Positions 9,928 to 44,565 of a stretch of 64,000 nt of DNA are shown one piece after another (position 1 is the first letter of the stretch; each line of letters starts with the position of its first letter). Under the pieces are notes generated by a model. That model did no database searches. It saw nothing but the letters and a program-made list of their open reading frames with translations, and was not told where the DNA came from. The position numbers and the translations under genes are program-made. The stretch is from the NCBI GenBank assembly GCA_964569265.1, contig CAZMTO010000001.1:3995-67994 (forward strand), written 5' to 3'. The stretch comes from an uncultured Peptococcaceae bacterium (GTDB lineage Bacteria; Bacillota; Dehalobacteriia; UBA4068; UBA4997).

Positions 9928-10255
9928 TAACTTGATCGTATCGCAAACCTTTGCGCTGAGACGATTTGGCAGAAAAGCTTGTTGGCTGCAATGGCCAGCA
10001 GAAGCCCCGCCACCCAAAAAACCAATCGGTTTGCAGAGCATTTGGGCAAGGGGTATCTCGCCTACAGGCAGCCGGCATGGTCGTCCGCAAGCCAAGCCCG
10101 GGTATCAGGCGGGCAACAGCAGGCAAAGCCGATCAAGCCACGGCCCATCAACAGCAATTATTTTTTTATTTTTAGATTAGGCTGTGGATTGGTTGGGCAG
10201 AGCAAAGTTAAACGGCACGATACAAAAAAATCAAAAAAGAATCGAGGTTGCACTT
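9928..10255 (+). ncRNA. long 5-prime leader (about 320 nt) of transporter copy 1, a candidate cis-regulatory RNA of unknown riboswitch class
   Basis: Blockwise conserved with the leader of copy 2 (CTGAGACGA, GTTGGCTGCAA, CC(A)6CC..GGTTT.CAGAGCATTTGGG, CCTACAGGCAG.CGGC, TCGTCCGCA, CAGCAATTATTTTTTATTTT, TAGGCTGTGG..TTGGGCAG). Indels break any shared reading frame. Confidence 0.45.
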
Positions 10256-11689
10256 ATGAAAGACAAAAAGATCGTTAAGCTTATCACAATTGTTCTTTTC
10301 GTAGCGCTGTGTGCTTGGACGTTTACGTCTCTTTCCGGCATTACTCCTCCTGACGCCGCTGCTCTGGGCGGGGAAGAATCCGAGGCTTATGTAACTGCAT
10401 TGGCCGAATACGAGGATGCTTATCAGCACCAAACAGCACTTTTGACCTTGGGCGTTCTGGTTACCATCGCATTCGTATTTATTACTGAATCGTTCCCGAT
10501 CGCTCTGGCCGCAATGGTTATCCCCTGTTACTACTCTGTATCCGGCATTATGGGCTGGAAGAGCGCGTTCTCCGGTTTGATTGACTCCTCCGTACTTCTG
10601 TTCGGTGGTATGTTTATCGTAGGCGGCGCAATGTTCCAGACCGGCTTGGCTCAGAAGATCGGCCTTTCCTGCGTAAAGATCGCAGCAGGTTCTGAAACCA
10701 AGTTGCAGTTGGTTATCATGATCGTAACCGGCGCTCTGTCCTCTTGCTTGTCCAACACCGGTACTGTTGCAGTATTGCTGCCTGTTTGCTTGGGTATTGC
10801 TGATTCCGCCGGCATGAGCCGCGCTAAACTGTTGATGCCTCTGGCAATTATGGCTTCTTCCGGTGGTATGATCACCGTAGCCGGTACTCCTCCGAATATG
10901 TCCGCAAATGCTACCCTGGATATGGTTGGCTTGGCACTCGGCTTCTTCGACTTTGCCTGGTACGGCATCCCGGTATCTATCGCTTCTATCCTGTATGTAA
11001 TGCTCATTGGTAACAAGCTCATCCCCAACCGTAAATCTGATATCGTTGTTGAGGACGAAGAAGAAGGTAAAGTATACGATCCTAAGAAACAGATCATCGC
11101 CGGTGCAGTACTTATCGTATGTATCATCGGTATGGTAATCTCCGACACCATCGGTATTCCGCTGCAGGTTATCGCTATCATCGGCGGTATCACTTGTGTA
11201 TTCACCGGTTGTATGACCGATAAGGAAGCTTACGAGTCCATCGACTGGACCACCATCTTCCTGTTTGCAGGTGCTATCGGTTTGGCAAATGCAATGCAGT
11301 CCACCGGCGCAGGCGAATTGCTCTCCACCAAGGTTGTTGGTGTTCTGGGCGGTTCTCCCAACCCCTACGTTCTGTTGATCGTACTGTTCCTGCTGGCCGG
11401 CGGTCTTACTCAGTTTATGTCTAACACCGCTGCTGCTGCTCTGCTGTGCCCCATCGGCTTGTCCATCGCTCAGTCTCTGGGCGCTGACCCGACGGCTGTT
11501 GTACTGTCCATCGGTTTTGCTTGCTCCGCAGCATATGTAACTCCTGTAGCAACTCCTCCGAACACCATGGTATTCGGCCCTGCAGGTTTAACCTTTATGG
11601 ACTTTGTAAAAGTTGGTTTGCCGCTGTTCGTTATCGCATTTATCCTGGCAGTAGTAATCGTACCGATCGTATGGCCCTTCTTCCCGTGA
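10256..11689 (+). CDS. ion-transporter (ArsB/NhaD/CitMHS) superfamily permease, paralog 1
   Basis: 477 aa polytopic membrane protein with two hairpin-like GTPPN motifs (AGTPPNMSA, ATPPNTMVF). The start is at MKDKKIVKL, which has RBS GAGGT and is 72 nt inside ORF 10184..11689. It is about 85% identical to the downstream copy. Confidence 0.7.
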   Translation: MKDKKIVKLITIVLFVALCAWTFTSLSGITPPDAAALGGEESEAYVTALAEYEDAYQHQTALLTLGVLVTIAFVFITESFPIALAAMVIPCYYSVSGIMGWKSAFSGLIDSSVLLFGGMFIVGGAMFQTGLAQKIGLSCVKIAAGSETKLQLVIMIVTGALSSCLSNTGTVAVLLPVCLGIADSAGMSRAKLLMPLAIMASSGGMITVAGTPPNMSANATLDMVGLALGFFDFAWYGIPVSIASILYVMLIGNKLIPNRKSDIVVEDEEEGKVYDPKKQIIAGAVLIVCIIGMVISDTIGIPLQVIAIIGGITCVFTGCMTDKEAYESIDWTTIFLFAGAIGLANAMQSTGAGELLSTKVVGVLGGSPNPYVLLIVLFLLAGGLTQFMSNTAAAALLCPIGLSIAQSLGADPTAVVLSIGFACSAAYVTPVATPPNTMVFGPAGLTFMDFVKVGLPLFVIAFILAVVIVPIVWPFFP

Positions 11690-12451: not shown

Positions 12452-13891
12452 ATGAAAGACAAGAGAATTGTTAAGCTTATTACAGTTGTTCTTTTCCTGG
12501 CGCTGTGTGCTTGGACTTACACGTCCCTCTCCGGCATCACTGCACCCGACGCTGCTGCTCTGGGCGGGGAAGAGTCCGAGGCTTATGTAACTGCATTAGC
12601 CGAATACGAGGATGCTTATCAGCACCAAACCGCACTTTTAACTTTGGGTGTTTTGGTAGTAATTGCATTTGTATTTATTACTGAATCGTTCCCGATCGCT
12701 CTGGCTGCAATGGCCATCCCCTGTTACTACGCTGTTTCCGGCATTATGCCTTGGAAGTCCGCATTCAGTGGCTTGATCGACTCCTCCGTACTTCTGTTCG
12801 GCGGTATGTTTATCGTAGGCGGTGCAATGTTCCAGACCGGTTTGGCCCAGAAGATCGGCCTTTCCTGCGTAAAGATCGCTGCTGGTTCTGAAACCAAGTT
12901 GCAGATCGTTATCATGGTAGTAACCGGCGCTATGTCCGCGTTCCTGTCTAACACCGGTACTGTTGCAGTATTGCTGCCTGTTTGCTTGGGTATTGCTGAT
13001 TCTGCCGGCATGAGCCGCGCTAAGCTGTTGATGCCCCTGGCAATTATGGCTTCTTCCGGTGGTATGATCACCATGGCAGGTACTCCTCCGAATATGTCTG
13101 CTGCTGCTACCTTGCAGATGGCTGATATTCCGATCGGTTTCTTCGACTTTATCTGGTTCGGTCTGCCGATTTCCATCGTTTCTATTCTGTACGTAATGAC
13201 CATTGGTAACAAGCTAATCCCCAACCGTCAGTCTGACGTTGTTGTTGAGGACGAAGAAGAAGGCAAAGTATACGATCCCAAGAAGCAGATCATCGCCGGT
13301 TTTGTTCTGGCTGTATGTATCGTTGGTATGGCTGCTTCCGATGCTATTGGCATCCCGCTGCAGGTTATCGCTATCATCGGCGGTATCACTTGTGTATTCA
13401 CCGGTTGTATGACCGATAAGGAAGCTTACGAGTCCATCGACTGGACCACCATCTTCCTGTTTGCAGGTGCTATCGGTTTGGCAAATGCAATGCAGTCCAC
13501 CGGCGCAGGCGAATTGCTCTCCACCAAGGTTGTTGGTGTTCTGGGCGGTTCTCCCAACCCCTACGTTCTGTTGATCGTACTGTTCCTGCTGGCCGGCGGT
13601 CTTACTCAGTTTATGTCTAACACCGCTGCTGCTGCTCTGCTGTGCCCCATCGGCTTGTCCATCGCTCAGTCTCTGGGCGCTGACCCGACGGCTGTTGTAC
13701 TGTCCATCGGTTTTGCTTGCTCCGCAGCATATGTAACTCCTGTAGCAACTCCTCCGAACACCATGGTATTCGGCCCTGCAGGTTTAACCTTTATGGACTT
13801 TGTAAAAGTTGGTTTGCCGCTGTTCCTTATCACCGGCGTTCTGGCTTTGGTAGTTGTACCGATTGTATGGCCTTTCTTCCCGGGTGCTTAA
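12452..13891 (+). CDS. ion-transporter (ArsB/NhaD/CitMHS) superfamily permease, paralog 2
   Basis: 479 aa, collinear with paralog 1 (MKDKRIVKLITVVLF...), with RBS GAGGT. Confidence 0.75.
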   Translation: MKDKRIVKLITVVLFLALCAWTYTSLSGITAPDAAALGGEESEAYVTALAEYEDAYQHQTALLTLGVLVVIAFVFITESFPIALAAMAIPCYYAVSGIMPWKSAFSGLIDSSVLLFGGMFIVGGAMFQTGLAQKIGLSCVKIAAGSETKLQIVIMVVTGAMSAFLSNTGTVAVLLPVCLGIADSAGMSRAKLLMPLAIMASSGGMITMAGTPPNMSAAATLQMADIPIGFFDFIWFGLPISIVSILYVMTIGNKLIPNRQSDVVVEDEEEGKVYDPKKQIIAGFVLAVCIVGMAASDAIGIPLQVIAIIGGITCVFTGCMTDKEAYESIDWTTIFLFAGAIGLANAMQSTGAGELLSTKVVGVLGGSPNPYVLLIVLFLLAGGLTQFMSNTAAAALLCPIGLSIAQSLGADPTAVVLSIGFACSAAYVTPVATPPNTMVFGPAGLTFMDFVKVGLPLFLITGVLALVVVPIVWPFFPGA

Positions 13892-22276: not shown

Positions 22277-22609
22277 ATGAAAAAGCTAACAAGCCTGCTG
22301 CTGGCTGCCCTGCTTGTGGGCGCACTGGCCGGCTGCGGCACCGATGACACTACCACCGGTGGTTCTACAGGCACCAACACCGGCACTATAAGCGGCAATT
22401 CTCTGCCTAACACCACCAACACCGGTATGAACACCGACAGTATGGGCGATTATCTTAATAATAACGCCCCTAACACCAAATACCGCGCAAATGGTATGGG
22501 CGCCGATTACGAACCCACCGGCAATGCGCTAACCGGCAAAAACTACGCCGACAGCGATTATCAGCACAGCGGCGTTACCGGGGCCAACAGTGTAAAGGCC
22601 GATATGTAA
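22277..22609 (+). CDS. small secreted lipoprotein, Thr/Gly/Asn-rich
   Basis: Signal peptide plus lipobox LAGC (MKKLTSLLLAALLVGALAGCG), followed by a low-complexity T/G/N region. Confidence 0.7.
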   Translation: MKKLTSLLLAALLVGALAGCGTDDTTTGGSTGTNTGTISGNSLPNTTNTGMNTDSMGDYLNNNAPNTKYRANGMGADYEPTGNALTGKNYADSDYQHSGVTGANSVKADM

Positions 22610-22698: not shown

Positions 22699-23202
22699 TT
22701 AAAGCTCGTCGGTAAAGCTTACCGGCAAAATGCTAAGGCTAATTTCACCGGTACGTATAATTTCAATAATGCCATACTTCTTCATCAGCTCGCAAAACGA
22801 GTCGATTTTTTTACTGTCGTTAGTTATTTCAATAACCATCGCTTCGGCATTAAAGTCTATAATACGGCCCATAAACACGTTTACCAGGCTCATAATTTCC
22901 TGTCGGTATTCGTCAGACGTGCGAATTTTTATCAGCGCCAGCTCACGGCTCATAGATGCTGCCTTAGACAAATGCACCACGCGGTATACCTGCACCAGCT
23001 TTTCTATCTGCGCCATTATCTGTTCAAGCTGCCAGTCCTCGTCTATCTGCACCACCAGCGATATCCGTGTGATATTGGGTTTTTCGGTTTTAGATGCCGC
23101 AATAGATTCGATATTGTAGCCACGGCGCGATATAAGGCCGGAAACGTGGGTTAAAACACCGGGGCTGTCTTCTACCAAAACGGCAAGCTGCTTTCTCTTC
23201 AT
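22699..23202 (-). CDS. ilvN: acetolactate synthase small (regulatory) subunit
   Basis: ACT domain opener LAVLVEDSPGVLTHVSGLISRRGYNIESI. The ATG overlaps the ilvB stop (TGATG). Confidence 0.9.
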   Translation of the reverse strand: MKRKQLAVLVEDSPGVLTHVSGLISRRGYNIESIAASKTEKPNITRISLVVQIDEDWQLEQIMAQIEKLVQVYRVVHLSKAASMSRELALIKIRTSDEYRQEIMSLVNVFMGRIIDFNAEAMVIEITNDSKKIDSFCELMKKYGIIEIIRTGEISLSILPVSFTDEL

Positions 23203-24887
23203 CAATAATCGCCCCCTTCAAACACCATTTCCGACAATGAGCTGCCGGGTGCCACCATAGGCATAACGTTTTCCATATCATCCACCAGCACCTCTATAAC
23301 CACCGGGCCGGGGGTAGCCTGCGCCTTTTTAAGGCCCGCTGCCACATCCTCGGGTTTTTCTATGGTTATACCGGTACAGCCCATAACCTCGCCCAAGGCG
23401 GCAAAGCTCATTTTAAATTCGTGCTTGCTGGCCGACATACGGTTGTTAAAAAACATACGCTGCCACTGGCGCACCATACCAAGGCCGCTGTTATTAAGCA
23501 CCAGCACCTTTACCGGCAGTTTTTCTTCGGCAAGGGTTGCCATTTCCTGGCAGTTCATCATAATGCTGCCGTCCGACGATATTATCCAAACCTCTTTATC
23601 ACCGGCAGCAAACGCTGCACCCATAGCAGCCGGCAAACCATAGCCCATAGTGCCAAGGCCGCCGCTGGTTAAAAAGGTACGCGGGTATTTAAAGTCCATA
23701 TATTGCGCCGTCCACATTTGATGCTGCCCAACGTCGGTGGCAATAATTGCTTCGCCGTGGCCGGTCAAATCATTAAGCGCCTGCAAAACAGCTTCGGGCT
23801 TAATAACACTGTCAGATGCTTCGTAGCTCATCGGGTGTTCGGCCTTCCACTTTTGGCAATTTGCGTGCCATTCGTCTAAATTGGCGGTTTTAGCCTCTTT
23901 AAGCAGCTCTAAAGACCATTTTAAGTCACCGGCCAGGCGGTAATCTACCCGCACATTTTTATTAAACTCGGCCGGGTCAACGTCTAAATGCACCACACGT
24001 GCCCCCGCCGCAAAGGTATTAAGCGTGCCGGTAACACGGTCATCAAAGCGCACACCCGCACCAATAAGCAAATCGGCGTGCTGCACTGCCATATTTGCCG
24101 CGTAGGTACCGTGCATACCCAGCATACCCAAATGCAGCTCATCTTGGGTGGGGTAGGCCGTTAAACCCATAAGGCTGGCCACCACCGGTATTTTGGTGCG
24201 GTTCACAAATTCGGCAATTTCTTCGGCGGCATTGGCGCTTATAACACCGCCGCCAATAAACAGCACCGGGCTGTGGCTGCGGCCGATAACGTCAATAATG
24301 GCCTGTAAATCGGCGATGCTGCCTTCTAATTTAGGCTGGTAGCTCCATTTTAAGTCGGCCAAATTCGTCGAATAATCAAATTCGCCCTCCTCCAGCAAAA
24401 TATCCTTGGGGATATCTACTACCACCGGGCCAGGGCGGCCGGTGCGGGCAATATAAAAGGCCTTTTTTAACACCAACGACAAATCGTTGACATCCTGCAC
24501 CAAAAAATTGTGCTTGGTTATAGGCGTGGTAATGCCCATAATATCAGCTTCCTGAAAACTGTCTTTACCGATAGAAGCCCGCGGCACCTGACAGGTTATG
24601 CACACCATCGGTATAGAATCCATATTGGCAGTGGCAATACCGGTTATAAGGTTGGTAGCCCCCGGGCCTGACGTTGATACGCAAACACCCACCTTGCCGC
24701 TGCTGCGCGCATAACCGTCGGCTGCGTGTACAGCGCCTTGTTCGTGGCGTGTTAAAACGTGCTTTAAACCACTGTCGTAAATTGCATCATACAAGGGCAA
24801 TGCCTGGCCGCCCGGATACCCGAAAATAGTTTCGATACCCTCGGCCTTTATTGCCTCTACTACCATTTTTGCACCGCTTAATCGCAT
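23202..24887 (-). CDS. ilvB: acetolactate synthase large subunit
   Basis: 561 aa TPP enzyme with IFGYPGG and GPGATN motifs. RBS AAGGAGG lies 7 nt upstream. The start lies inside the last codons of scfB. Confidence 0.92.
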   Translation of the reverse strand: MRLSGAKMVVEAIKAEGIETIFGYPGGQALPLYDAIYDSGLKHVLTRHEQGAVHAADGYARSSGKVGVCVSTSGPGATNLITGIATANMDSIPMVCITCQVPRASIGKDSFQEADIMGITTPITKHNFLVQDVNDLSLVLKKAFYIARTGRPGPVVVDIPKDILLEEGEFDYSTNLADLKWSYQPKLEGSIADLQAIIDVIGRSHSPVLFIGGGVISANAAEEIAEFVNRTKIPVVASLMGLTAYPTQDELHLGMLGMHGTYAANMAVQHADLLIGAGVRFDDRVTGTLNTFAAGARVVHLDVDPAEFNKNVRVDYRLAGDLKWSLELLKEAKTANLDEWHANCQKWKAEHPMSYEASDSVIKPEAVLQALNDLTGHGEAIIATDVGQHQMWTAQYMDFKYPRTFLTSGGLGTMGYGLPAAMGAAFAAGDKEVWIISSDGSIMMNCQEMATLAEEKLPVKVLVLNNSGLGMVRQWQRMFFNNRMSASKHEFKMSFAALGEVMGCTGITIEKPEDVAAGLKKAQATPGPVVIEVLVDDMENVMPMVAPGSSLSEMVFEGGDY

Positions 24888-26236
24888 AGCTCCGCCTCCT
24901 TAACTGCCAGCCAAATTGCACATTCTAAGCGCATTTGGCTAATTGCACAGCCCAGCTCGTAGGGCTGCATAATATCGTGATGAAACAAATCGGCATTAGC
25001 ATGACAGCCGCCGCTGCAAAAAAACCGCGCCCAACAGGTTTGGCAGGGCTTTTTGTTATAAACGTGCGCATTGCGGAACTTGTCTACCAGCTCTTTAGAG
25101 CCGGGCCACACGCCTTCATCTACCGTGCCCAGCTTATATTCTTCTCGGCCGACAAACTGGTGGCAGGGGTACAAATCACCCTCGGGTGTTACCACCATAT
25201 ATTCATAACCGGCACCGCAGCCGGTAAGCCGCTTGGGCAGGCACGGGCCATGCTTTAAATCTAACTTAAAGTGAAAGAAGTCAAACGGTTTGCCTGCCTC
25301 ACGTCTGTCCTCAAACAGGTGGGCCAGTTTCCAGTATTCTTCTTTAAGCTGCGGCAGATCATCTTCGGTAAGCTTGCGCGGGCCATAAAGCTCCACCGCC
25401 GGCTCCATAGAAAGCCGCGGAAAACCAAGCTCCAGCCAGTGTTCTATATCTGCACAAAAATCCTTGTTATATGCCGTGTAGGTGCCGCGCACAATGGCAT
25501 TGTTGCGGCTGTTCTGCGCCAAAAACGCCTTAATATTTTCCGTAACCTGCTCGTAGCTGCCGCTGCCGTCCGGGAACACCCTCTGGCGGTCGTGAACTTC
25601 GGGGCGGCCATCGTGGCTAAGCACCACGCTAACGGCGTTTTCTTCGGCCCAGGCGTCAATTTCGGGCGTTAAACCCACACAGTTGGTGGTAAAAGTAAAG
25701 CGGAAGGTTTTGCCATACTGCTTTTCGCGTTCTCGGCCGTAGGCCACCAGTTGCTTTACCACATCAATATTCAGCAGCGGTTCGCCGCCAAAAAAGTCTA
25801 TTTCTAAAAATTTCCGCAGGCCGCTGTGTTCCAAAACATAATCCAGCGCTTTAGCACCGGTTTCAAAGCTCATCATAGAACGGTGACCGCCAAAGCTGCC
25901 GGTAGAAGCAAAACAGTAACGGCAACGCAGGTCGCAATCGTGGCAAATATTTAAGCACAACGACTTTAATACCGGCGCCGGCGGAATATACTTGCCCTCG
26001 TAAGCATCATTGGTAAACAACAGTCCCTGCTCTTTTAATTCCAGCAGTTCAGCGGCAATTTCCTGCTCGTCGGCCGTCAGGGCTTCGGCCTGTGCCAGCT
26101 TGTTTAACACCGCCGCCGTTGCATCATCTATCCGCATAACCGAACCGCTGTTAATGTCCAGCAGCAGCCAACCGTCCGGCACGCTAAACCAGTGCAAAAG
26201 CTGCAAATCGTCCGGCTTTATCTGCGTATTATTCAT
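24878..26236 (-). CDS. scfB: radical SAM/SPASM peptide maturase (SCIFF maturase ScfB-type, thioether-forming)
   Basis: CxxxCxxC radical SAM motif (CHDCDLRCRYC), a C-terminal SPASM Cys cluster (CQTCWARFFCSGGCHANAD), and a position immediately downstream of a SCIFF precursor gene. Confidence 0.85.
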   Translation of the reverse strand: MNNTQIKPDDLQLLHWFSVPDGWLLLDINSGSVMRIDDATAAVLNKLAQAEALTADEQEIAAELLELKEQGLLFTNDAYEGKYIPPAPVLKSLCLNICHDCDLRCRYCFASTGSFGGHRSMMSFETGAKALDYVLEHSGLRKFLEIDFFGGEPLLNIDVVKQLVAYGREREKQYGKTFRFTFTTNCVGLTPEIDAWAEENAVSVVLSHDGRPEVHDRQRVFPDGSGSYEQVTENIKAFLAQNSRNNAIVRGTYTAYNKDFCADIEHWLELGFPRLSMEPAVELYGPRKLTEDDLPQLKEEYWKLAHLFEDRREAGKPFDFFHFKLDLKHGPCLPKRLTGCGAGYEYMVVTPEGDLYPCHQFVGREEYKLGTVDEGVWPGSKELVDKFRNAHVYNKKPCQTCWARFFCSGGCHANADLFHHDIMQPYELGCAISQMRLECAIWLAVKEAELCD

Positions 26237-26344: not shown

Positions 26345-26485
26345 TTATTTTTCGCAGGCCTGATTGCCAACCGTGCAAGAGGTTTTGCAAGCAGACTGGC
26401 AGGAGCTTTGGCAGTTGCCGCAGCCGCCGTTTTTAGCGTTTTCCTGCAATTTCCCTTTAAAAATGACCTGAATATGCTTAGCCAT
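26345..26485 (-). CDS. scfA: six-cysteine peptide SCIFF (ranthipeptide precursor)
   Basis: The 46-aa product MAKHIQVIFKGKLQENAKNGGCGNCQSSCQSACKTSCTVGNQACEK matches the SCIFF signature GGCGxCQxSCQSACKTSCTVxNQxCE. RBS GGGAGGA lies 7 nt upstream. It is internal to the listed 77-aa ORF. A promoter TTGAAG-17-TATACT lies upstream and a hairpin plus T-run lies between scfA and scfB. Confidence 0.88.
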   Translation of the reverse strand: MAKHIQVIFKGKLQENAKNGGCGNCQSSCQSACKTSCTVGNQACEK

Positions 26486-26695
26486 GATCATTCCTCCCAT
26501 ATATTTGGGGGTAGCCCCCGCAAAATTTTGCCAACAAAGCCCCAAACGGGCAACTTTGTAGTAGATTAAGTATAACATAATTTTAAGGCGGCTTCAAGGG
26601 CTTTTGTGCGGTTTTTGTTATTTAGCCTGCACAGGCTTGGCAAATTATGCATAACCTGTACTATAAACCAAAAAAAACACAAGGAGGGCTTGATT

Positions 26696-26860
26696 ATGGC
26701 CTGTATAAATAACTGCCCGTGTAACTTTAATAGCTGTAATAACTGTAATAGTTGTAATAGCTGCGGCTGTGGCTGCAACCGCCGCCGTACCTGCGATTTT
26801 TCTAATCTGGGTATTTGGGGCAACACCTGGCCTATAGGCGGTGTTTGCTGTAGGCGTTAG
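26696..26860 (+). CDS. Cys-rich small protein 1 (54 aa, 12 Cys), unknown family
   Basis: MACINNCPCNFNSCNNCNSCNSCGCGCNRRRTCDFSNLGIWGNTWPIGGVCCRR. A strong RBS AAGGAGGG lies 7 nt before the ATG, with an upstream TTGGCA-17-TACTAT promoter. It is internal to listed ORF 26606..26860. Confidence 0.6.
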   Translation: MACINNCPCNFNSCNNCNSCNSCGCGCNRRRTCDFSNLGIWGNTWPIGGVCCRR

Positions 26861-26965
26861 GCATTATTTTTGGTAATAACAATGCCGGGCAGCAATTTGC
26901 TGGCACCAACAGGCGTTGTTGTTCATAAATATAACTAACAACAATATTAAAGGAGGTCACAAATT

Positions 26966-27229
26966 ATGCTTACCAATTCTATCTTCGGCTCTTGTAATTC
27001 CTGTGGGTGCGGCAGTTGCGGCAATAGCTGCGGCTGCAATAGCTGCGGCAACGGTGTTTTGGGCACCAACACCGGCAGTTGCGGGTGTGGCTGCGGCAGT
27101 TGGGGCGGCAACCTCGGCTGTTCGGCGTTTAACTTTGTAGGAGATTGGGTAAATATTGTGGTAACCTTAACCGTTTTGCAGAGCATTTTGGGTTTGGTGT
27201 GCAACTGGAACTGCGGCTGCAACAACTAA
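26966..27229 (+). CDS. Cys-rich small protein 2 (87 aa, 14 Cys), a paralog of protein 1
   Basis: CNSCGCGSCGNSCGCNSC and SCGCGCGS motifs shared with protein 1, plus a hydrophobic Trp-containing C-terminal segment and a terminal CNWNCGC. RBS AAAGGAGG lies 9 nt before the ATG. Confidence 0.6.
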   Translation: MLTNSIFGSCNSCGCGSCGNSCGCNSCGNGVLGTNTGSCGCGCGSWGGNLGCSAFNFVGDWVNIVVTLTVLQSILGLVCNWNCGCNN

Positions 27230-27307
27230 ACAATGCAAGGTTAGCTTAGCTTTGGGGGACGGCTGCCCACGCGGCCGCCCCTATTGCTTACAGAGGAGGA
27301 ATTTTTG

Positions 27308-28003
27308 ATGAACAAACAGGAGCTTATAGACTGCCTGCTGGATTGCAGCCGACGTTTGGCGCAGTTGGCCGAACATTTGCAAAATTGGCAGCCACCGGAC
27401 GAAGCTGCCCCCACCGATATTGCTGCCGACACCATAGCTAAAGCGGTTGCAGAAGCTGCGCCCGATGAAGCTGTTGATACTGTTAATGATGCTGTTATTG
27501 ATGTTAATACTATTGATGTTGATACAGCGGCACCGCCCGCCCCAACCGTAAGGGCCAGCGCAGCCAACCCGTTTGCCCGCCTGTTTGCCGGGCTAAACCC
27601 CGGCGGCACCAACCTGCCGACAGGCAGCAACCCGTTTAATCTGCTTAATATGCTGGGTGGCGGTATGCCCGGCCTTGGCAGCGGCAACCTGCCCACTACC
27701 CTGGCCGAACTGCACGACAACCCGCAAATTATGAACATTTTAAGCCAGGTAGCCGGTAACCCGCAAAGCCTTAATATGTTATCTTCGCTTACGGGGCAAA
27801 GCCCGGCAGCCCTGCAAGGGGCACTAAACAGCTTGCAGCCCACGGCAGCAGCTACACCGGCAGCAGCTACACCGGCAGCACCCGCGCCTATACCTGCGGC
27901 AGCGGCAGCCCCTATGCCGGCAGTACCATCGGCAACTGCCCACTTAGATAACCTGCTGGCCGAATGGCACTGGGGGCCATATGCCCGCGTTTGGGCACGC
28001 TAA
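27308..28003 (+). CDS. Ala/Pro/Asn-rich low-complexity protein, hypothetical
   Basis: 232 aa from the ATG at 27308 (RBS GGAGG). It has an N-terminal Cys pair (DCLLDC), a central NPF/GGxMPGLG repeat region and an Ala-Pro-rich tail. Its function cannot be assigned. Confidence 0.45.
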   Translation: MNKQELIDCLLDCSRRLAQLAEHLQNWQPPDEAAPTDIAADTIAKAVAEAAPDEAVDTVNDAVIDVNTIDVDTAAPPAPTVRASAANPFARLFAGLNPGGTNLPTGSNPFNLLNMLGGGMPGLGSGNLPTTLAELHDNPQIMNILSQVAGNPQSLNMLSSLTGQSPAALQGALNSLQPTAAATPAAATPAAPAPIPAAAAAPMPAVPSATAHLDNLLAEWHWGPYARVWAR

Positions 28004-38171: not shown

Positions 38172-39014
38172 TTACTTTCTGGTTCTGCGGCGGTGCTGCT
38201 TAGCTGCGGCAGGCTTAGCCTCAGCATCGGCTGCCTTATCTTCGGCGGCTTTTGCTTCTTTCAATTCTTTATTATGGCGGCGCTGCTCGCGGTTAGCTCT
38301 AACCTGCGCCTTAGAATTTTTGTTGGCCTGCTGCTCTAATTTTAAACGTTTTTCTTCGGTAAGCTCCTGCTGGCGTTTTTCCATACGGGCTTTTACGGGT
38401 TTGGTAACAACAATTTGCTGCAAAATACCAATAGCCGTAACAGAAAGCCAGTAAATACACAAAAACGCAGGGAACTTAGCAGCCATCCAGGCCATCATTG
38501 CCGGCATGGCAATTACCATATACCACTGCATAAACTGCTTTGGTCTGCCACTTATTACCAAACTTTGTATAAGTGTGCTGGCACCTACCAAAAATACCAT
38601 TATATAAGTGGTATCCACCTGCGCCAAATCAGGTATCCAAAAAAAGCGGTAATATTCCGGGTTAGAAGGTACAAAGTTGCTTAAGCCCCTGTATAAGCCG
38701 ATCAAAATAGGGAACTGAATAAGCATAGGCAAGCAGCCGGCCATAGGGTTAACACCGTAATCCTGATACAGCGTCATAGTTTTTTGCTGCATAACCTCGG
38801 GGTTGTTGGCATACTTGGCTCTTATTTCTTCTAACTGCGGCTGAATTTGCTGCATAGCAATGGTAGACTGCATTTGCTTAAAGTTTAGCGGCAGCAGCAA
38901 CATACGTATTACCACGGCAATTACGATAATTGCCACAGCATAGCTGGGAAACCCCAAACTCATAGTTATCTGAAAAAGTTTTTCCAGACAACCCGAAACA
39001 AATTCATCAAACAT
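38172..39014 (-). CDS. yidC: membrane protein insertase YidC/SpoIIIJ
   Basis: 280 aa Oxa1-family short form with five TM segments and a Lys-rich C-terminal tail. Confidence 0.88.
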   Translation of the reverse strand: MFDEFVSGCLEKLFQITMSLGFPSYAVAIIVIAVVIRMLLLPLNFKQMQSTIAMQQIQPQLEEIRAKYANNPEVMQQKTMTLYQDYGVNPMAGCLPMLIQFPILIGLYRGLSNFVPSNPEYYRFFWIPDLAQVDTTYIMVFLVGASTLIQSLVISGRPKQFMQWYMVIAMPAMMAWMAAKFPAFLCIYWLSVTAIGILQQIVVTKPVKARMEKRQQELTEEKRLKLEQQANKNSKAQVRANREQRRHNKELKEAKAAEDKAADAEAKPAAAKQHRRRTRK

Positions 39015-39079
39015 TAGTAAATTCCTTTTTATGTGTTACACTTTTAATGTAGCGATACTTTCAATTTAATAAAAAACAG

Positions 39080-39328
39080 CTATTTAACAGGGTCATACCC
39101 ACCTTTGTTAAAGGGATGACACCTTAATATGCGCCGAAAGGCCATCCACCCGCCCTTTAGCGGGCCATATTTGGTTATGGCATGTATGGCATAGGCCGAA
39201 CAGGTAGGATAAAACCTGCACCTTGCACCAATATACGGCGAAATAAACCACTGATAGCATTTTATCAGCAGTATCATTAAAAACTGTATAAGCCGCAACG
39301 GCGCGGCGATAATTTTTTTTAAGGGCAT
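39080..39328 (-). CDS. yidD: membrane protein insertion efficiency factor YidD
   Basis: [15 protein letters not shown]...HPF signature. Confidence 0.9.
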
Positions 39329-39364
39329 AGCAATTACCCCAAAGCCAAAAGCCGCTTTAAAGTG

Positions 39365-39709
39365 TTATCTGGGCTTTAGCCCGGCGGCATTTACCGCTTT
39401 TTTTATACGGTTGCGAAGGCTCTCCACTGTTTGCTCCTTCGCGGCCTGCCTTGCTATAAGTACATAATCATACCCCGGCACAAAAGCCGCAAGCTCTAAT
39501 CGGCAGGCTTCTCTCAGCCTTCTTTTTACAAGGTTGCGCTCCACGGCTTTGCCTATCTTTTTAGATACCGAAAAGCCTATGCGCATACCCTTTTTGGCAT
39601 ACGATTGCCTGTAGCATAACACAAAGGCCGGATTTTTCAGCGACTTTCCGCTTTTATATACCCGCCGAAAATCCTGCCTTCTTTTTAAACGGTTTTCCTG
39701 CTTTAACAT
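39365..39709 (-). CDS. rnpA: ribonuclease P protein component
   Basis: 114 aa basic protein containing LKRRQDFRRVYKSGKS, following rpmH. Confidence 0.9.
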   Translation of the reverse strand: MLKQENRLKRRQDFRRVYKSGKSLKNPAFVLCYRQSYAKKGMRIGFSVSKKIGKAVERNLVKRRLREACRLELAAFVPGYDYVLIARQAAKEQTVESLRNRIKKAVNAAGLKPR

Positions 39710-39754
39710 AGCTTACACTTCTCTATTAAACTGATTATAGCGGTTTGCCGGCAA

Positions 39755-39889
39755 TTAAGCAGACAAAACCTTGCGGCCCTTTGCACGGCGGCGGGCTAAA
39801 ACCTTGCGGCCGTTTTTGCTGCTCATTCTGGCCAAAAAGCCATGAACTCTTTTATGCACGCGGTTTTTCGGCTGATAAGTTCTTTTCAT
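39755..39889 (-). CDS. rpmH: 50S ribosomal protein L34
   Basis: Minus-strand translation [44 protein letters not shown] (44 aa). It is missed by the 60-aa ORF track. RBS GGAGGG is present, and an alternative ATG lies 3 nt upstream. Confidence 0.92.
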
Positions 39890-39892
39890 CAT

Positions 39893-40214
39893 CAATCCCT
39901 CCATTCTTTATGATGATCTTCCATAATTATCCCTGATATTGTGACTAAGCCCGGCTGTTGTTTGCGGCACATTTGCCATATTTGCCCACACTTGGCCATA
40001 GTAACAGGTAAATTATATCATAATCAAAAATATGCTTTTTGTCAAGACCATATTAAAAAAAGATAATTAAATTAGTTTTAACTTTTCCACAAAAATGCAT
40101 TGCAAAAGTGGATAATTTTTGGTATTATAAATAAGCAATTGATTTTGGGGCGGCATTTTGTCCCCAAAGTGGGGATTGTTTCCCCAATTTTGTTAATATT
40201 TACAGGTGATTATT
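39893..40214. promoter_or_regulatory. oriC upstream part (rpmH-dnaA intergenic) with DnaA boxes
   Basis: TTTTCCACA at 40084-40092 and AGTGGATAA (reverse) at 40106-40114, plus weaker boxes at 39968-39990. It includes the dnaA promoter region. Confidence 0.7.
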
Positions 40215-41564
40215 ATGAAGTACGAGCTTTGGCCGCAAATTTTGCAGGAACTTGCGGCACATTTAAGTCAGGAAACTATAAACCGCTGGTTTATGAACGT
40301 TATTGATGCGGAAAAAAACGGCAACACCTTATATCTAAAGGTACATACCGAAACCCAGGCCGACTGGATGATAAACCATTACACACCCTTTTTGCAGGAA
40401 AGTGTTAATAAGGTTGCCGGCGAATCTTTAGACATAAGCTACATAACCAACGATGATGCCGCAGCCGGCCGTATGGAGCCGGCGCAGCAAACGCCCATAT
40501 CCTTCAGCGACAGTTATTCTTTTGCGCAAAACAGCAACATAAGCCGCTTTAACCCGCGCTACACCTTTGAAAGCTTTGTGGTGGGCAGCAGCAACCGTTT
40601 TGCCCACGCCGCCGCTTTGGCCGTAGCCGATAAACCGGCCAAAAATTATAACCCGCTGTTTTTATATGGCGGCAGCGGCCTTGGCAAAACCCACCTTATG
40701 CACGCCATTGCACACCGCATATTGTCGGTTAGGCCCAACACCAACATTTTGTACACCTCTACCGAAACCTTTACCAACGACTTTATAGTTATGGTACGAG
40801 ACGGCAAAATGGACAACTTTAAAGACAAATATCGCTACACCGATATTCTGCTGATTGACGATATTCAGTTTTTGGCCGGCAAAGATAAAGTGCAGGAAGA
40901 ATTCTTCCACACCTTTAATGCTTTGTATGAACAGGGCAAGCAGATAGTTATCAGCTCGGATAGAAACCCCAAGGAAATTGCCACGCTGGAAGAACGTCTG
41001 CGTTCTCGCTTTGAAGGCGGCCTGATAACCGATATTCAACCGCCGGATTTAGAAACCCGTATTGCTATTTTGCAGTATAAAGCCAAAATGGAAAATCTTA
41101 AAATTACCGAAGATTCCATAAGCTACATTGCCAGCAATATTCCTTCTAACATCCGCGAGCTGGAGGGCGCACTTAACCGTGTAAAATATTATGCCATTGT
41201 CAACGAATCTAAAATTATTGATTTGGGACTTACGCAAAAGGCTATGGACGATATTTTGCCCAACAAAAAACGCCAGGCTCTAACCCCGGCGCTGATAAAA
41301 GACAGTGTTGCCAGCTACTTCAACATTCAAAGCAAAGACCTTGCATCGCCCCGGCGTGACCAGAGCATTACCAAGCCGCGGCACATTGCCATGTATCTGT
41401 GCCAGACGCTGCTTAATATGAGCCTAAACGAAATAGGGGAAAACTTTGGCAAGCGCGACCATACCACCGTGCTGCACGGCACCAAAAAAATTACCAACGA
41501 TTTGCAGACCGACGTTAACCTGCAAAAAAACATAAAAGAGCTTACCGAGCTGATAACCGGCTAA
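40215..41564 (+). CDS. dnaA: chromosomal replication initiator DnaA
   Basis: AAA+ Walker A GGSGLGKTHL and a C-terminal DNA-binding domain. The start is MKYELW, which has RBS AGGTGA and is 9 nt inside the listed ORF. Confidence 0.95.
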   Translation: MKYELWPQILQELAAHLSQETINRWFMNVIDAEKNGNTLYLKVHTETQADWMINHYTPFLQESVNKVAGESLDISYITNDDAAAGRMEPAQQTPISFSDSYSFAQNSNISRFNPRYTFESFVVGSSNRFAHAAALAVADKPAKNYNPLFLYGGSGLGKTHLMHAIAHRILSVRPNTNILYTSTETFTNDFIVMVRDGKMDNFKDKYRYTDILLIDDIQFLAGKDKVQEEFFHTFNALYEQGKQIVISSDRNPKEIATLEERLRSRFEGGLITDIQPPDLETRIAILQYKAKMENLKITEDSISYIASNIPSNIRELEGALNRVKYYAIVNESKIIDLGLTQKAMDDILPNKKRQALTPALIKDSVASYFNIQSKDLASPRRDQSITKPRHIAMYLCQTLLNMSLNEIGENFGKRDHTTVLHGTKKITNDLQTDVNLQKNIKELTELITG

Positions 41565-41586
41565 GCTGTTAACACCAAAATTTAAA

Positions 41587-41627
41587 AAAGCTTTTCATCT
41601 GGAAAACAGGTGAAAAGCTTTTTTTGT
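41587..41627 (+). terminator. intrinsic terminator after dnaA
   Basis: AAAAGCTTTTCA/TGAAAAGCTTTT 12-bp stem with a 13-nt loop, followed by TTTTT. Confidence 0.8.
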
Positions 41628-41631
41628 GCAG

Positions 41632-41988
41632 CAAAACAGTGTAAATATTAAAGGTTGTATTTTTTGGGGATATATAGTATAATAACCCTACAACGTTTTT
41701 GGTTATCCACAGAGTTTTTAACAATTCTGGAAAACTTTTAAACTTTACACGTTGATTTTTTGGGGATTATAAAATTCGGTGTTGGATAATTGATTTTTTT
41801 CAACAAAATGTTTATAATTTTTAACAGGCTTTTCCCAGCCGTCAAAGCCGCACGGTTTCTGGTTTTCCAGAGGTTTTAAACATTTTTAACAACACCTAAT
41901 ACTACTACTGCTAAACTTTATAATAATAATAATATATGCAGCGTAAATTTTACTTATTACCAATTACACAATTTTTAAGGAGACCGCT
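41632..41988. promoter_or_regulatory. oriC downstream part (dnaA-dnaN intergenic) with a perfect DnaA box and an AT-rich DUE
   Basis: TTATCCACA at 41703-41711, gTTGGATAA at 41781-41789, TTTTCCAGA at 41871, and an AT-rich tract at 41895-41940 (ACTACTACTGCTAAACTTTATAATAATAATAATATATG). Confidence 0.75.
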
Positions 41989-43098
41989 ATGAATTTTAAC
42001 TGCCAAAAGGAAGATCTGCTTTACGGCGTACAGATAATCGGCAAAGCCATATCTTCTAAAAACACCATGCCCATACTTAACGGTATATTGATTATTGCCG
42101 AAGACCAGCAAATTACACTTAGAGCAACCGACCTTGATATTGCTGTTCAATGTTCGGTACCGGCCGATGTAGCAGAGGAGGGCAAGCTGGTTATTGCCGA
42201 CGGCAAACGTTTTATTGACATTGTACGCCAGTTGCCTAACAACAATATCAACATAAGCCTGATAAACGACTGTGATATTAACATTAACTACGGCATTTCT
42301 TCTATCAATGTAAAAGGCTTTGAAAGTGAACAGTTTCCGCAGTTGCCCGATATGCAGGGTGATGTAAGCGGCACTATGCCGGGCAGCGTGTTTGCCCGCG
42401 TTACCAAGCAAACATCTATTGCTGCTGCCAATGATGATATTCAGCCGATACTTACCGGCATTATGATGGACATTAAAGGTGCCGATGTTAATTTTGTGGC
42501 AACCGATTTTCATCGCCTTACCATGACCAAAAGCGTATGGCAAACCGCCAACACCGCCGCAGTGCAGGTTATTGTTCCGGTAAAAACCATGTTAGAGGCT
42601 GCTGCCCTGGCAGACGGCGAAGAAGTTGTGGAGCTTACCATTAACCGCAGCAATATTTGCTTTACCATTGGTTCTACCATTATAATCTCGCGGCTTATCT
42701 CCGGTCAGTTCCCGGACTATATGTCGATTATACCCAAAGAGGAAATTCTGGTACACCGGATTTTTGTTGATAAAAACCTGCTTAACAGCTCGCTTAAACG
42801 TGCCAGCATTTTAAGCAAAGATGCCAACAATACCGTAAGGCTGGAATTTAAGCCCGAACAGATTATTATGACGGCCAACACCAGCGAAATCGGCAATATC
42901 AGAGAAATTATACCTGCTAACGTTGCCGGTGATGACCTGCTGGTTGGTTATAACCTTAAATATATTTTAGACTTTTTGCGTGTAAGCACCGGCGACGGCG
43001 TATACCTTAAGCTGTCCGGTAATCTTACCCCCGGCACTATGACTGAGGAAGATAACGAAGGCTTTGTTTATATTATTTTGCCTTTAAGATTGGTTTAA
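41989..43098 (+). CDS. dnaN: DNA polymerase III beta sliding clamp
   Basis: 369 aa with three-domain beta-clamp architecture. Confidence 0.93.
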   Translation: MNFNCQKEDLLYGVQIIGKAISSKNTMPILNGILIIAEDQQITLRATDLDIAVQCSVPADVAEEGKLVIADGKRFIDIVRQLPNNNINISLINDCDININYGISSINVKGFESEQFPQLPDMQGDVSGTMPGSVFARVTKQTSIAAANDDIQPILTGIMMDIKGADVNFVATDFHRLTMTKSVWQTANTAAVQVIVPVKTMLEAAALADGEEVVELTINRSNICFTIGSTIIISRLISGQFPDYMSIIPKEEILVHRIFVDKNLLNSSLKRASILSKDANNTVRLEFKPEQIIMTANTSEIGNIREIIPANVAGDDLLVGYNLKYILDFLRVSTGDGVYLKLSGNLTPGTMTEEDNEGFVYIILPLRLV

Positions 43099-43127
43099 TT
43101 AAAATATAATAGCGTTGGTGTAAAATT

Positions 43128-43349
43128 ATGCATAAAGTAACAGTTCAAAGGTTCCCCATAACGGTGGTGCAGTTTTTAAAGTGGGCCGGTGCGGTGTTAA
43201 CCGGCGGCGAAGCTAAAGAGCTGGTGAGAGAGGGTTACATAAAGGTTAACGGCAGCGTGTGCAGCGTTGCCGGGCATAAGCTGGCCCCCGGCGATACCGT
43301 AGAAATTTTGGGAGAAGAAGATATTTGCTATTTGGTGGCACAGGAATAA
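43128..43349 (+). CDS. yaaA: S4-domain RNA-binding protein (YaaA-like)
   Basis: 73 aa. FLKWAGAVLTGGEAKELVREGYIKVNG is an S4 fold. It sits in the conserved dnaN-recF position. Confidence 0.8.
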   Translation: MHKVTVQRFPITVVQFLKWAGAVLTGGEAKELVREGYIKVNGSVCSVAGHKLAPGDTVEILGEEDICYLVAQE

Positions 43350-43437
43350 AAAAAGTAGGCGTACAAGCTTTGTGCGCCTATTTGTTTCGGTAAAAATATA
43401 ATGTTTTACATAATATTTGGCAGAGGAGGAAGAAAGG

Positions 43438-44565
43438 TTGCTGCAATTAAATAATTTGCTGCTGCGTAATTTTCGCAATTATAAAGAACAGCAGCTTAAT
43501 TTTCATCCTAAGCTTAATATTATTTGCGGTGATAACGCTCAGGGCAAAACCAATTTGTTAGAAGCTATTGCCTATTTAAGCCTGGGATCATCGTTTAGAG
43601 AGCAAAGCGAGGATAAAATAAAAAACCGCAACAGTGACTTCTTTTTTTTAAAAGCCCTGCTTTGCACCAAAGACGGTGAACACAGCCTGTCGGCAGGGTA
43701 TCAGCGGCGGCAGCGCTTTTGGAAGAAGGACGAAGTTCCCTGTAAAAAAATAAGTGAAGTAGCCGGCTTGTTGCATACGGTGGTTTTTCAGCCGGAAGAT
43801 TTGGAGCTGGTTAAAAAAGGGCCGGAGATAAGGCGCCATTTTTTGGATAGGGAAATGATACAGCTTTACAGCGGCTACCATATTTATTTGGGCAATTATA
43901 AAAAAGCCCTGCTGCAACGCAACAATTTTTTAAAGCAGCTTGATTTTACCGTAAAAGATGCCGATGAGCAGCTTGCGGTTTGGGAAGAACAGCTTGCCAA
44001 AAACGGTGCCCAAATAATTTATCGGCGGCAAAAAATTATTGAAAGGCTGGGCCAAATAAGCCGGCAAATACACAGCGACCTTACCGGCGGTGCCGAAGAA
44101 TTGACCATAAAGTATGTTTGCGGTGCTGCGGATGTTGGTACACTGCCGATGCCGGCAGAACAAATTGCCGAAAACCTGCGGCAGGCGTATGCTGCCGGGC
44201 GGGATGAGGATAAGCGACGGCGTTTAACATTGCTTGGCCCGCACCGCGACGATTTTAGAATTTATATTAACGGCACAGATGCGCGCTACTTTGGTTCTCA
44301 GGGGCAGCAGCGCACGGCGGCTTTGGCCTTAAAGCTTTCGGAAGTTGAATTGGTGTGGCAGGAATCTGTCTATTACCCGCTGCTTTTGTTAGATGATGTG
44401 TTTTCGGAGTTGGATGCCGGCCGCCGCAAGGCACTTTTGCGGCTTATGCTTAATAAAGCACAGATATTTATAACCGCAACCGAAGCAGGCACCGATTTAA
44501 GCGCGGTGCCCAGTGTGGATTATTTTATGTTTAATGTGCAAAACGGGCTGGCAAGGCGTGTTTAA
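43438..44565 (+). CDS. recF: DNA replication and repair protein RecF
   Basis: Walker A GDNAQGKTNLLEA and a C-terminal SMC-like signature. The probable TTG start at 43438 lies 8 nt after GAGGAGG. The ORF track starts at an upstream TTG at 43417. Confidence 0.9.
   Translation: MLQLNNLLLRNFRNYKEQQLNFHPKLNIICGDNAQGKTNLLEAIAYLSLGSSFREQSEDKIKNRNSDFFFLKALLCTKDGEHSLSAGYQRRQRFWKKDEVPCKKISEVAGLLHTVVFQPEDLELVKKGPEIRRHFLDREMIQLYSGYHIYLGNYKKALLQRNNFLKQLDFTVKDADEQLAVWEEQLAKNGAQIIYRRQKIIERLGQISRQIHSDLTGGAEELTIKYVCGAADVGTLPMPAEQIAENLRQAYAAGRDEDKRRRLTLLGPHRDDFRIYINGTDARYFGSQGQQRTAALALKLSEVELVWQESVYYPLLLLDDVFSELDAGRRKALLRLMLNKAQIFITATEAGTDLSAVPSVDYFMFNVQNGLARRV

Follow-up and report, generated by a model that had tools for sequence, protein, structure and literature searches.

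What are the small, extremely cysteine-rich proteins encoded beside a radical S-adenosylmethionine (radical-SAM) locus in a gut anaerobe? We analyzed a stretch of 64,000 nucleotides (nt) from an uncultured Peptococcaceae bacterium (class Dehalobacteriia, order UBA4068). This stretch is hereafter called the window, and coordinates are positions in it unless a related locus is named. Two short open reading frames (ORFs), ORF1 and ORF2, encode the cysteine-rich proteins, and ORF3 follows them on the same strand. The genes scfA and scfB, for the SCIFF precursor and its radical-SAM/SPASM maturase, lie divergently about 0.2 to 0.5 kb away. A first-pass annotation of this DNA had offered three roles for the pair: extra radical-SAM substrates, metal-binding peptides, or disulfide-cross-linked components of the spore coat or exosporium. 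The evidence favors the last, by way of promoters kept in 27 of 27 cases and a composition like that of CdeC and CdeM, while the other two are less well supported. We hold, with moderate confidence, that ORF1-ORF2-ORF3 is a clade-specific, late mother-cell spore coat or exosporium module. Presence, linkage, and promoters were compared in 15 species and the codons of the conserved ORF2 block in 14; L-numbers denote the related loci that were compared with the window.

The ORF1, ORF2, and ORF3 families

ORF2 stands as it was called, with 87 amino acids (aa) and 14 Cys (16%), and contains neither Lys nor Arg. A collection of 5.8 billion protein clusters yielded 47 homologs, all unnamed. Members of the family open with a conserved MLxNSI(F/Y)G, continue with a Cys/Gly/Asn region of variable length and composition of residues, and then enter a near-invariant block, ...LGNxAFxF(V/I)G(D/E)WVNIVVTLT(I/V)LQSILGLVCNWNC, that is followed by a short Cys tail (CGCNN). 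In the segment given in Table 1, 21 residues are identical across the 14 species while two to five synonymous codons are in use at almost every position; the only amino acid changes in the block are I/V and D/E. Since the variation over these 21 codons is exclusively synonymous, extreme purifying selection acts on the ORF2 protein and not on the DNA. At the level of codon comparison, such saturated synonymous change indicates a packing constraint on the hydrophobic segment, and by the same token ORF2 is a genuine gene under selection.

The invariant segment is sufficiently hydrophobic to span a membrane. The Kyte-Doolittle maximum over 19 residues is 1.96, at residues 61 to 79, with a hydrophobic moment of about 0.1. 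Only about six residues follow the helix, giving it a tail-anchor-like position together with transmembrane-like hydrophobicity. An AlphaFold2 model left residues 1 to 51 disordered and placed a single helix at residues 52 to 82 (predicted local distance difference test score up to about 79). The likeness to the hairpin architecture of sactipeptide and ranthipeptide cores that had been suggested for both proteins has no support; the C-terminal half of ORF2 is one hydrophobic helix, transmembrane in character. ORF2 had no match in Pfam, NCBIfam, or PHROGs, the family libraries that were scanned with all three ORFs, and 29 aligned family members had no NCBIfam match at an E value of ≤1. When the ORF2 profile was run exhaustively with HMMER against 1.84 billion representatives, it returned five proteins, all of them family members, and no remote relatives. 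One protein (P0039, 114 aa, from an ENA contig of 946 bases) joins a YjeF_N-like N terminus (PF03853) to the C-terminal block of ORF2, but on so short a contig an artifact of gene calling or assembly is much the likeliest explanation, and not a true domain fusion.

ORF1 likewise has the length and content first given (54 aa, 12 Cys, 22%). Near-consensus ribosome-binding sites had been claimed for both genes, and we located strong GGAGG-type sites, AAGGAGGG for ORF1 and AAAGGAGG for ORF2; GGAGG-type sites occupy the equivalent place before all ORF1 orthologs. A word-indexed homolog search returned zero candidates, ORF1 itself included, and ORF1 is absent from a collection of 15 billion protein sequences, which indicates that gene callers have missed it. 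We therefore located the orthologs by position in the related loci. They are present in 12 of the 15 species, on the same strand and directly upstream of the ORF2 homolog, each with a GGAGG and an ATG.

These orthologs range from 54 to 477 aa and from 15 to 36% Cys. They start with MAC(C)NN or MANNN (MAC(I/C)NN being the window-type start), and they share a sole conserved motif, F-x-x-(L/C/W)-G-I-(W/F)-G-x-x-(W/F)-P-(L/I)-G-G, which occupies residues 35 to 49 of the window ORF1. Their Cys/Asn repeats (C-N-S, C-N-N, and C-D) are hypervariable, and outside the conserved motifs, Cys positions cannot be aligned between orthologs. A tandem repeat of 9 bp, resembling TGTAATAGC, encodes C-N-S/C-N-N in ORF1. 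Two other strains of the same species (L001 and L002) carry three more 9-bp units in ORF1 than the window does (+27 bp, in frame), between nearly identical flanks. ORF1 had no match in the three libraries. Judged from its conservation, ORF1 too is a genuine gene under selection.

Several orthologs of ORF1 depart from the window form. The longest (L006:4486-5919, plus strand; 477 aa, 19% Cys, 26% Asn) carries repeated modules DDDDTFTVTRNYNGQTWNFSRNNDNDDDCDCDNCRCRCRNCDCDDCC...GNNGNNGN, and a 206-aa ortholog (L019:1965-2585, plus strand) carries related TLTITV.../VKFTITRE modules; in both, a small beta-strand-like module stands between Cys/Asp-rich spacers. The most extreme one (L014:7657-7833, plus strand) has 58 aa, 36% Cys, and a C-terminal end ...CRCCRCCCCQCCCCRQCCCCHDHHHHHCD. 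Its Cys4 runs and natural His5 stretch suggest, on composition, metal binding. The same sequence is present in L086 and L067, and this sub-lineage derives from a fermentation metagenome and not from gut. The codon repeats of ORF1 also create long antisense ORFs (26566..26826 in the window and L004:4669-5094, both on the minus strand). For L004, public records call the antisense ORF, of 141 aa, and not the Cys-rich sense ORF. Such antisense calls are a systematic annotation artifact for this family.

ORF3 had been described as an Ala/Pro-rich low-complexity protein. It does follow on the same strand, but it holds three strongly conserved modules and is thus not merely low complexity. The protein comprises an N-terminal helix (MNKQELI..LAEHL), predicted with confidence; NPFARL/NPFNLLNML motifs; a small four-helix unit (NLPxTLAELHDNPQ...LTGQ..LQ.ALQSLQP); and, at the C terminus, the invariant HLD.LLAEWHW.PYARVW. 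Between these parts run linkers, acidic or Ala/Pro-rich, that differ in length. All 29 homologs are unnamed and belong to the same clade, and nothing rose above noise in Pfam, NCBIfam, or PHROGs.

ORF1 and ORF2 had been taken for paralogs of one family. Profile-profile comparison with hhalign gave a probability of 0.5%, and we rejected paralogy: BLASTP aligns only a low-complexity C/N/S/G stretch, and each family has a conserved motif of its own. From these comparisons, the two share a composition and are not demonstrably of common ancestry. The description of the pair as unannotated applies to ORF1, which gene finders hardly ever call, and less to ORF2, for which, as for ORF3, NCBI and Logan records contain calls but no name.

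With one genome scanned for each GTDB species, the ORF2 family turned up in 13 species only, all represented by uncultured metagenome-assembled genomes from the gut of rabbit, goat, mouse, chicken, and human. Their titles read uncultured Peptococcaceae bacterium, Bacillota bacterium, or Candidatus Avidehalobacter gallistercoris. Candidatus Avidehalobacter falls in GTDB order UBA4068, family UBA5755 (PMC8035907), and UBA4068 falls within class Dehalobacteriia (PMC10327494). Within the collections searched, ORF1, ORF2, and ORF3 are orphan families restricted to this one order. A mobile-element origin was considered and rejected, with no phage or plasmid match by tblastn.

Promoters and transcription of the unit

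The upstream regions of ORF1 and ORF2 share a conserved architecture. All 12 ORF1 orthologs have (G)CAC, exactly 17 nonconserved bases, and an invariant CATAACCTGTACTATAA (CATATCTTG... in two species). All 15 ORF2 orthologs have GCAC(C), exactly 17 nonconserved bases, and then CATAAATATAA(A/C)TATC. AC-N17-CATA is kept in all of the 27 ORF1 and ORF2 promoters examined. Because conserved blocks flank a variable spacer of fixed length, we believe that these are functional two-element promoters. The pattern [GT]CAC[CA]-N16-CATA[AT] occurred 30 times in 262 kb of clade DNA, and 24 of these matches were the ORF1 and ORF2 promoters themselves. In Clostridioides difficile and Bacillus subtilis, sigma-K promoters have AC at −35 and CATA(TAAT) at −10, for example, AC / CATATAAT, whereas sigma-E promoters have ATA at −35 (PMC3789822). 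By this resemblance, we regard the ORF1 and ORF2 promoters as sigma-K type and presumably recognized by sigma-K.

A TTGGCA/TACTAT sigma-70 promoter had been proposed for ORF1. In our scan its spacer was 16 and it matched at 9 of 12 positions, and TTGGCA was not conserved in any other species. Since TTGGCA sits in the variable, nonconserved spacer, we dropped the sigma-70 reading for the main promoter. An extended −10 reading of TGTACTAT was also tried and fitted poorly. The scfA gene has a sigma-A-type promoter on the other strand, and TTGAAG/TTGCCG-N17-(TG)TATAAT is kept upstream of scfA in L006, L009, L010, L011, L017, L018, and L019. As the promoter classes differ (sigma-K type versus sigma-A type), ORF1 and ORF2 are probably regulated differently from scfAB.

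A GC-rich hairpin lies between ORF2 and ORF3. The equivalent GGCGGCCGG...CCGGCCGCC stem is kept in L008, L009, L010, L011, L017, L018, and L019, with a T-run after it in most, and it is a putative intrinsic terminator or attenuator; Rfam gave no credible RNA-element match. The ORF3 ribosome-binding site comes immediately 3' of the hairpin, and in L011 there is no space for a promoter. With the hairpin followed at once by this site, ORF3 is most simply expressed by read-through, below the level of ORF2. A hairpin in such a place is typical of an abundant structural protein encoded ahead of a rarer partner.

A proposed spore-surface module and its alternatives

We favor a spore-surface module because the unit combines sigma-K-type promoters, extreme-Cys repeats, an absence of recognizable domains, rapid length evolution, and a narrow clade. 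High Cys content, short Cys repeats, and no enzymatic domain are the hallmarks of the CdeC/CdeM and CotY/CotZ/ExsY kind, and ORF1 and ORF2 have all three. On this model, the sigma-K-type promoters would drive transcription in the mother cell at a late stage of sporulation. The ORF1 protein and the ORF2 head would make up a cross-linkable Cys-rich matrix, in which the conserved ORF1 motif may dock to a partner and the ORF1 cysteines may serve in disulfide or metal-bridged cross-linking. The ORF2 helix would insert into a membrane in the manner of a tail anchor or pack into a homo-oligomeric assembly. ORF3, made in a lower amount through read-through of the hairpin, could be a modular assembly helper or adaptor. 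Expression in sporulating cells, location at the spore surface, cross-linking, and what the helix and ORF3 do are our inferences, and we assume that order UBA4068 is able to sporulate. Dehalobacteriia include a cultured spore former with a full sporulation gene set (PMC5597755). The literature that we found on sporulation in UBA4068 and Dehalobacteriia covers only the cultured Dehalobacterium.

In C. difficile, CdeC (9% Cys, NPC repeats, and a CNECC motif) and CdeM (8.7% Cys, NGNNGGNNNNC and CNCCNCCRK repeats) have no conserved domains; the former is confined to the Peptostreptococcaceae, the latter to C. difficile. The exosporium cannot assemble properly unless both are present, and both show strain-level indels; the self-assembly of CotY/CotZ and ExsY involves disulfide cross-links (PMC6101409). 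ORF1 and ORF2 resemble CdeC and CdeM in their high Cys content and short Asn/Gly/Cys repeats, as they do, in a broader sense, B. subtilis CotY/CotZ and the ExsY/CotY proteins of the Bacillus cereus group. With CdeC and CdeM they also share the lack of recognizable domains, the narrow lineage, and the strain-level indels; late mother-cell control would be a further common trait if AC-N17-CATA is read by sigma-K. They differ in a Cys density that is 2 to 4 times higher, in the shortness of ORF1 (as little as 54 aa), in the absence of detectable sequence or profile similarity, and in the invariant C-terminal helix, which ORF2 alone possesses. A further parallel is BclA, a spore surface protein with collagen-like GXX repeats whose length is polymorphic. 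ORF1 shows in-frame variation in repeat copy number between strains of one species (the 27-bp difference above), but its repeats are C-N-S/C-N-N and not GXX, and it lacks collagen-like and C1q-like domains and shows no sign of glycosylation.

Several observations count against a spore-surface module. The −10 regions match CATA and not the full CATA---TA / CATATAAT consensus. The invariant ORF1 block of 17 nt exceeds the length of a −10 element and may include the site of a regulator, and when metagenomes were scanned with this block, only 2 of 81 matches came from the clade, both at ORF1 loci, and no additional regulon member came to light. No sporulation gene was recognizable among the roughly 45 window proteins, the small intergenic ORFs, and 10 proteins from related loci that made up our scans for sporulation genes. 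Pfam, NCBIfam, profile, and fold searches linked the module to no known coat protein, either by sequence or by fold. Finally, a transmembrane-like hydrophobic helix such as that of ORF2 is not a feature of CdeC, CdeM, or CotY.

An alternative is that ORF2, with ORF3, is a nonstructural membrane protein of sporulation, such as a tail-anchored organizer, a channel, or a mother-cell lysis factor, with ORF1 as a separate coat protein. We think this unlikely, and it is in any case a close variant of the spore-surface module. The ORF2 segment satisfies transmembrane criteria (Kyte-Doolittle 1.96 with a low hydrophobic moment, close to the C terminus), and the fact that it is absolutely invariant suggests specific packing within the membrane. 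The helices of ORF3 are rich in Met/Leu/Asn/Gln and give sub-threshold Pfam matches to STI1/DP or XPC-binding domains (E of about 0.03), and such domains bind hydrophobic segments. However, these matches are far below threshold and fold searches were negative, ORF2 has no charged flanks to set its topology, and the chemistry of its head is that of ORF1, which points to a shared structural matrix. The YjcZ family of Bacillus sporulation proteins, with a tiny Gly/Cys-rich head and one hydrophobic helix, offers a model for such a protein. As described, these are alike in architecture to ORF2, with its short Gly/Cys-rich N-terminal part and single hydrophobic helix, but ORF2 is longer, its helix is invariant and unrelated in sequence, and ORF1 and ORF3 are its partners. 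NCBIfam, which we take to include a YjcZ-family model, gave no match at an E value of ≤1 for ORF2 and 28 aligned relatives, and hence no match to YjcZ.

Metallothionein-like buffering of metals or redox state (Zn, Cu, Cd, or Fe held by dense thiolates), unrelated to spores, would account for a Cys content of 16 to 36%, for the abundance of Cys-X-Cys and Cys-X-X-Cys spacing, and for the CCCCHDHHHHHCD at the end of the L014-type ORF1 ortholog. It leaves the invariant hydrophobic helix of ORF2 without a role and sits poorly with a conserved sporulation-type promoter. Hypervariable length and repeat number also run counter to a defined metal cluster. No metallothionein (SmtA/BmtA) or other metal-binding model in Pfam or NCBIfam matched, and the unit has no metal-responsive operator or regulator genes. 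We consider this explanation improbable.

The neighborhood itself suggests that ORF1, ORF2, or both are additional substrates of ScfB or of another radical-SAM enzyme, that is, thioether-cross-linked precursors of the ranthipeptide or sactipeptide type. SCIFF (ScfA), ranthipeptides, sactipeptides, and CcpA-type and CXXX-repeat peptides are likewise small, Cys-rich, and, like our pair in most species, encoded beside a radical-SAM/SPASM maturase. The conserved flanks around a hypervariable Cys-rich middle in ORF2 are also reminiscent of RiPPs, peptides made by the ribosome and modified after translation. Divergent adjacency to scfAB holds in 11 of 15 species, short of the constant linkage for which a co-occurrence survey had been proposed. 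The order ilvB<-scfB<-scfA | ORF1->ORF2->ORF3 is found in the window and in L006, L009, L015, L016, L017, L018, and L019, and in L010, L011, and L012 scfA|ORF2-ORF3 is kept with ORF1 absent. In the remaining four species (L004/L020, L013, L014, and L022), the ORF1-ORF2 pair has no scfAB within 8 to 10 kb. In L022 ilvBN-scfAB is missing, but the pair still has the PRK-family and M29-peptidase genes of the window beside it and dnaA nearby. Since the pair occurs without scfAB in these species, adjacency is frequent but dispensable. It is explained by synteny within a narrow clade, as ilvBN is equally "linked."

Other observations also speak against a substrate role, which we judge very unlikely. 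Obligate pairing with a SPASM maturase, as seen for SCIFF and ranthipeptide precursors, is absent. Against RiPP-precursor hidden Markov models, a check that had been suggested, ORF1 and ORF2 gave no match at an E value of ≤1 and neither did 29 ORF2-family members, while scfA scored 80 and 76 bits. ScfB scores as the dedicated SCIFF equivalog, and the substrate proper to it is present. ORF1 orthologs can be as long as 477 aa, which is not peptide-like, the promoter class differs from that of scfA, and genes for a dedicated maturase, a transporter, a protease, or leader recognition are missing from the unit. The statement that scfB, about 0.5 kb away, is the only radical-SAM/SPASM gene in the window agrees with our scan, in which no other radical-SAM protein was present among the roughly 45 window ORFs covered, but a functional link to SCIFF is weak. 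We treat scfA and scfB as neighbors, and at most as possible members of the ORF1-ORF2-ORF3 unit.

A loose connection between SCIFF and sporulation is nevertheless conceivable. According to the summary of Chen et al. 2020 in PMC8102284, disruption of the SCIFF genes in Clostridium beijerinckii lowered the expression of sporulation genes. One could imagine that the conserved divergent arrangement with scfAB has a function and that ScfB or SCIFF acts on ORF1 and ORF2 during sporulation, with thioether cross-links in a spore-surface matrix anchored by the ORF2 helix, a long shot that we rate as less likely still. If true, it would give the widespread, functionally obscure SCIFF system a concrete role in spore envelope assembly and define a protein-sized class of radical-SAM-cross-linked structural proteins. 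In a weaker version of this long shot, the invariant V/I/T/L-rich segment of ORF2 would form a self-assembling, perhaps amyloid-like hydrophobic layer on the spore surface, with ORF3 as its chaperone.

Least tenable of all, and extremely unlikely, is that ORF2, and perhaps ORF1, acts as a Cys-rich bacteriocin, an antimicrobial peptide or toxin that is secreted or active on membranes. The small size, hydrophobic helix, Cys-rich variable region, and narrow distribution would allow this. However, there is no signal or leader peptide and no double-glycine motif, genes for immunity, transport, or processing are missing, and no copies came up in phages or plasmids. The chromosomal place near oriC is stable across species and not island-like, and the helix is the most conserved part, whereas bacteriocin cores usually diversify.

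Genomic setting and implications

Table 1. Positions of the genes and sequence elements of the locus (window coordinates)
Feature	Position	Strand	Details
scfB	24878..26236	−	SCIFF radical-SAM/SPASM maturase; TIGR03974, 519.8 bits (cutoff 425)
scfA	26345..26485	−	SCIFF precursor, 46 aa; PF13165, 80 bits, E = 1e-22; TIGR03973, 76 bits (cutoff 50)
scfA promoter	26569..26597	−	sigma-A type, TTGAAG-N17-TATACT with TG extension
ORF1 promoter	26629..26666	+	−35 GCAC 26629..26632; 17-nt variable spacer; invariant CATAACCTGTACTATAA 26650..26666
ORF1 ribosome-binding site	26681..26688	+	AAGGAGGG, 7 nt 5' of ATG
ORF1	26696..26860	+	54 aa
ORF1 tandem repeat, 9 bp	26722..26763	+	TGTAATAGC-like, encodes C-N-S/C-N-N; Tandem Repeats Finder, period 9/18
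ORF2 promoter	26903..26935	+	−35 GCACC 26903..26907; 17-nt variable spacer; CATAAATATAAC 26924..26935
ORF2 ribosome-binding site	26949..26956	+	AAAGGAGG
ORF2	26966..27229	+	87 aa
ORF2 invariant segment	27134..27214	+	residues 57-83, F-V-G-D-W-V-N-I-V-V-T-L-T-V-L-Q-S-I-L-G-L-V-C-N-W-N-C
ORF2-ORF3 hairpin	27254..27281	+	GC-rich; predicted −31 kcal/mol, z = −2.45
ORF3	27308..28003	+	231 aa; same strand, after ORF2

The scfA gene is called in Logan records as a 77-aa protein from an upstream ATG (26345..26578, minus strand). Of this call, the SCIFF models match the last 46 residues only, and the internal ATG at 26485 has a GGAGG site in front of it; scfA is uncalled altogether in L002 and L006. 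On the minus strand, the scfB stop overlaps the start of ilvB by 10 bases (24878..24887), and ilvB overlaps ilvN (23202..23205). From these overlaps, scfB is apparently translationally coupled into an scfA-scfB-ilvB-ilvN transcription unit, an arrangement kept in at least six related species.

The Cys-rich module lies about 12 kb from oriC, a position kept in L006 and L022. The replication origin region of the window (39015..44565) has dnaA (40206..41564), dnaN (41989..43098), and recF (43417..44565) on one side, and a yidC/spoIIIJ-like gene (38172..39014, minus strand), jag, mnmE, mnmG, rsmG, parA, and a noc/parB-like gene on the other. Two tandem paralogous genes for DASS-family anion symporters stand close together on the plus strand (10184..11689 and 12452..13891). 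Between a PRK-family gene and ilvN, a predicted lipoprotein of 110 aa (22277..22609, plus strand) has an LAGC lipobox, a Thr/Gly/Asn-rich low-complexity body, and no family match. The rest of the window otherwise consists of housekeeping genes.

Lineage-specific Cys-rich spore-surface proteins are known as a kind. What is new here is three sequence families, of which ORF1 is largely unannotated. The design of ORF2, a hypervariable head on an invariant helix, and the presumably cotranscribed ORF3 set the module apart, although we do not claim mechanistic novelty. For the mining of genomes for RiPPs, the locus is a caution that a Cys-rich ORF beside a radical-SAM enzyme is not always a RiPP precursor. 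The ORF2 design is unusual and merits structural work, and the promoter signature of ORF1 and ORF2 could be used to find the remaining late-sporulation regulon in genomes of the clade. Spore-surface proteins govern the persistence, transmission, and host interaction of gut anaerobes, and they are lineage specific and invisible to homology-based annotation. For an uncultured gut clade, order UBA4068 of the Dehalobacteriia, this locus provides three orphan families.

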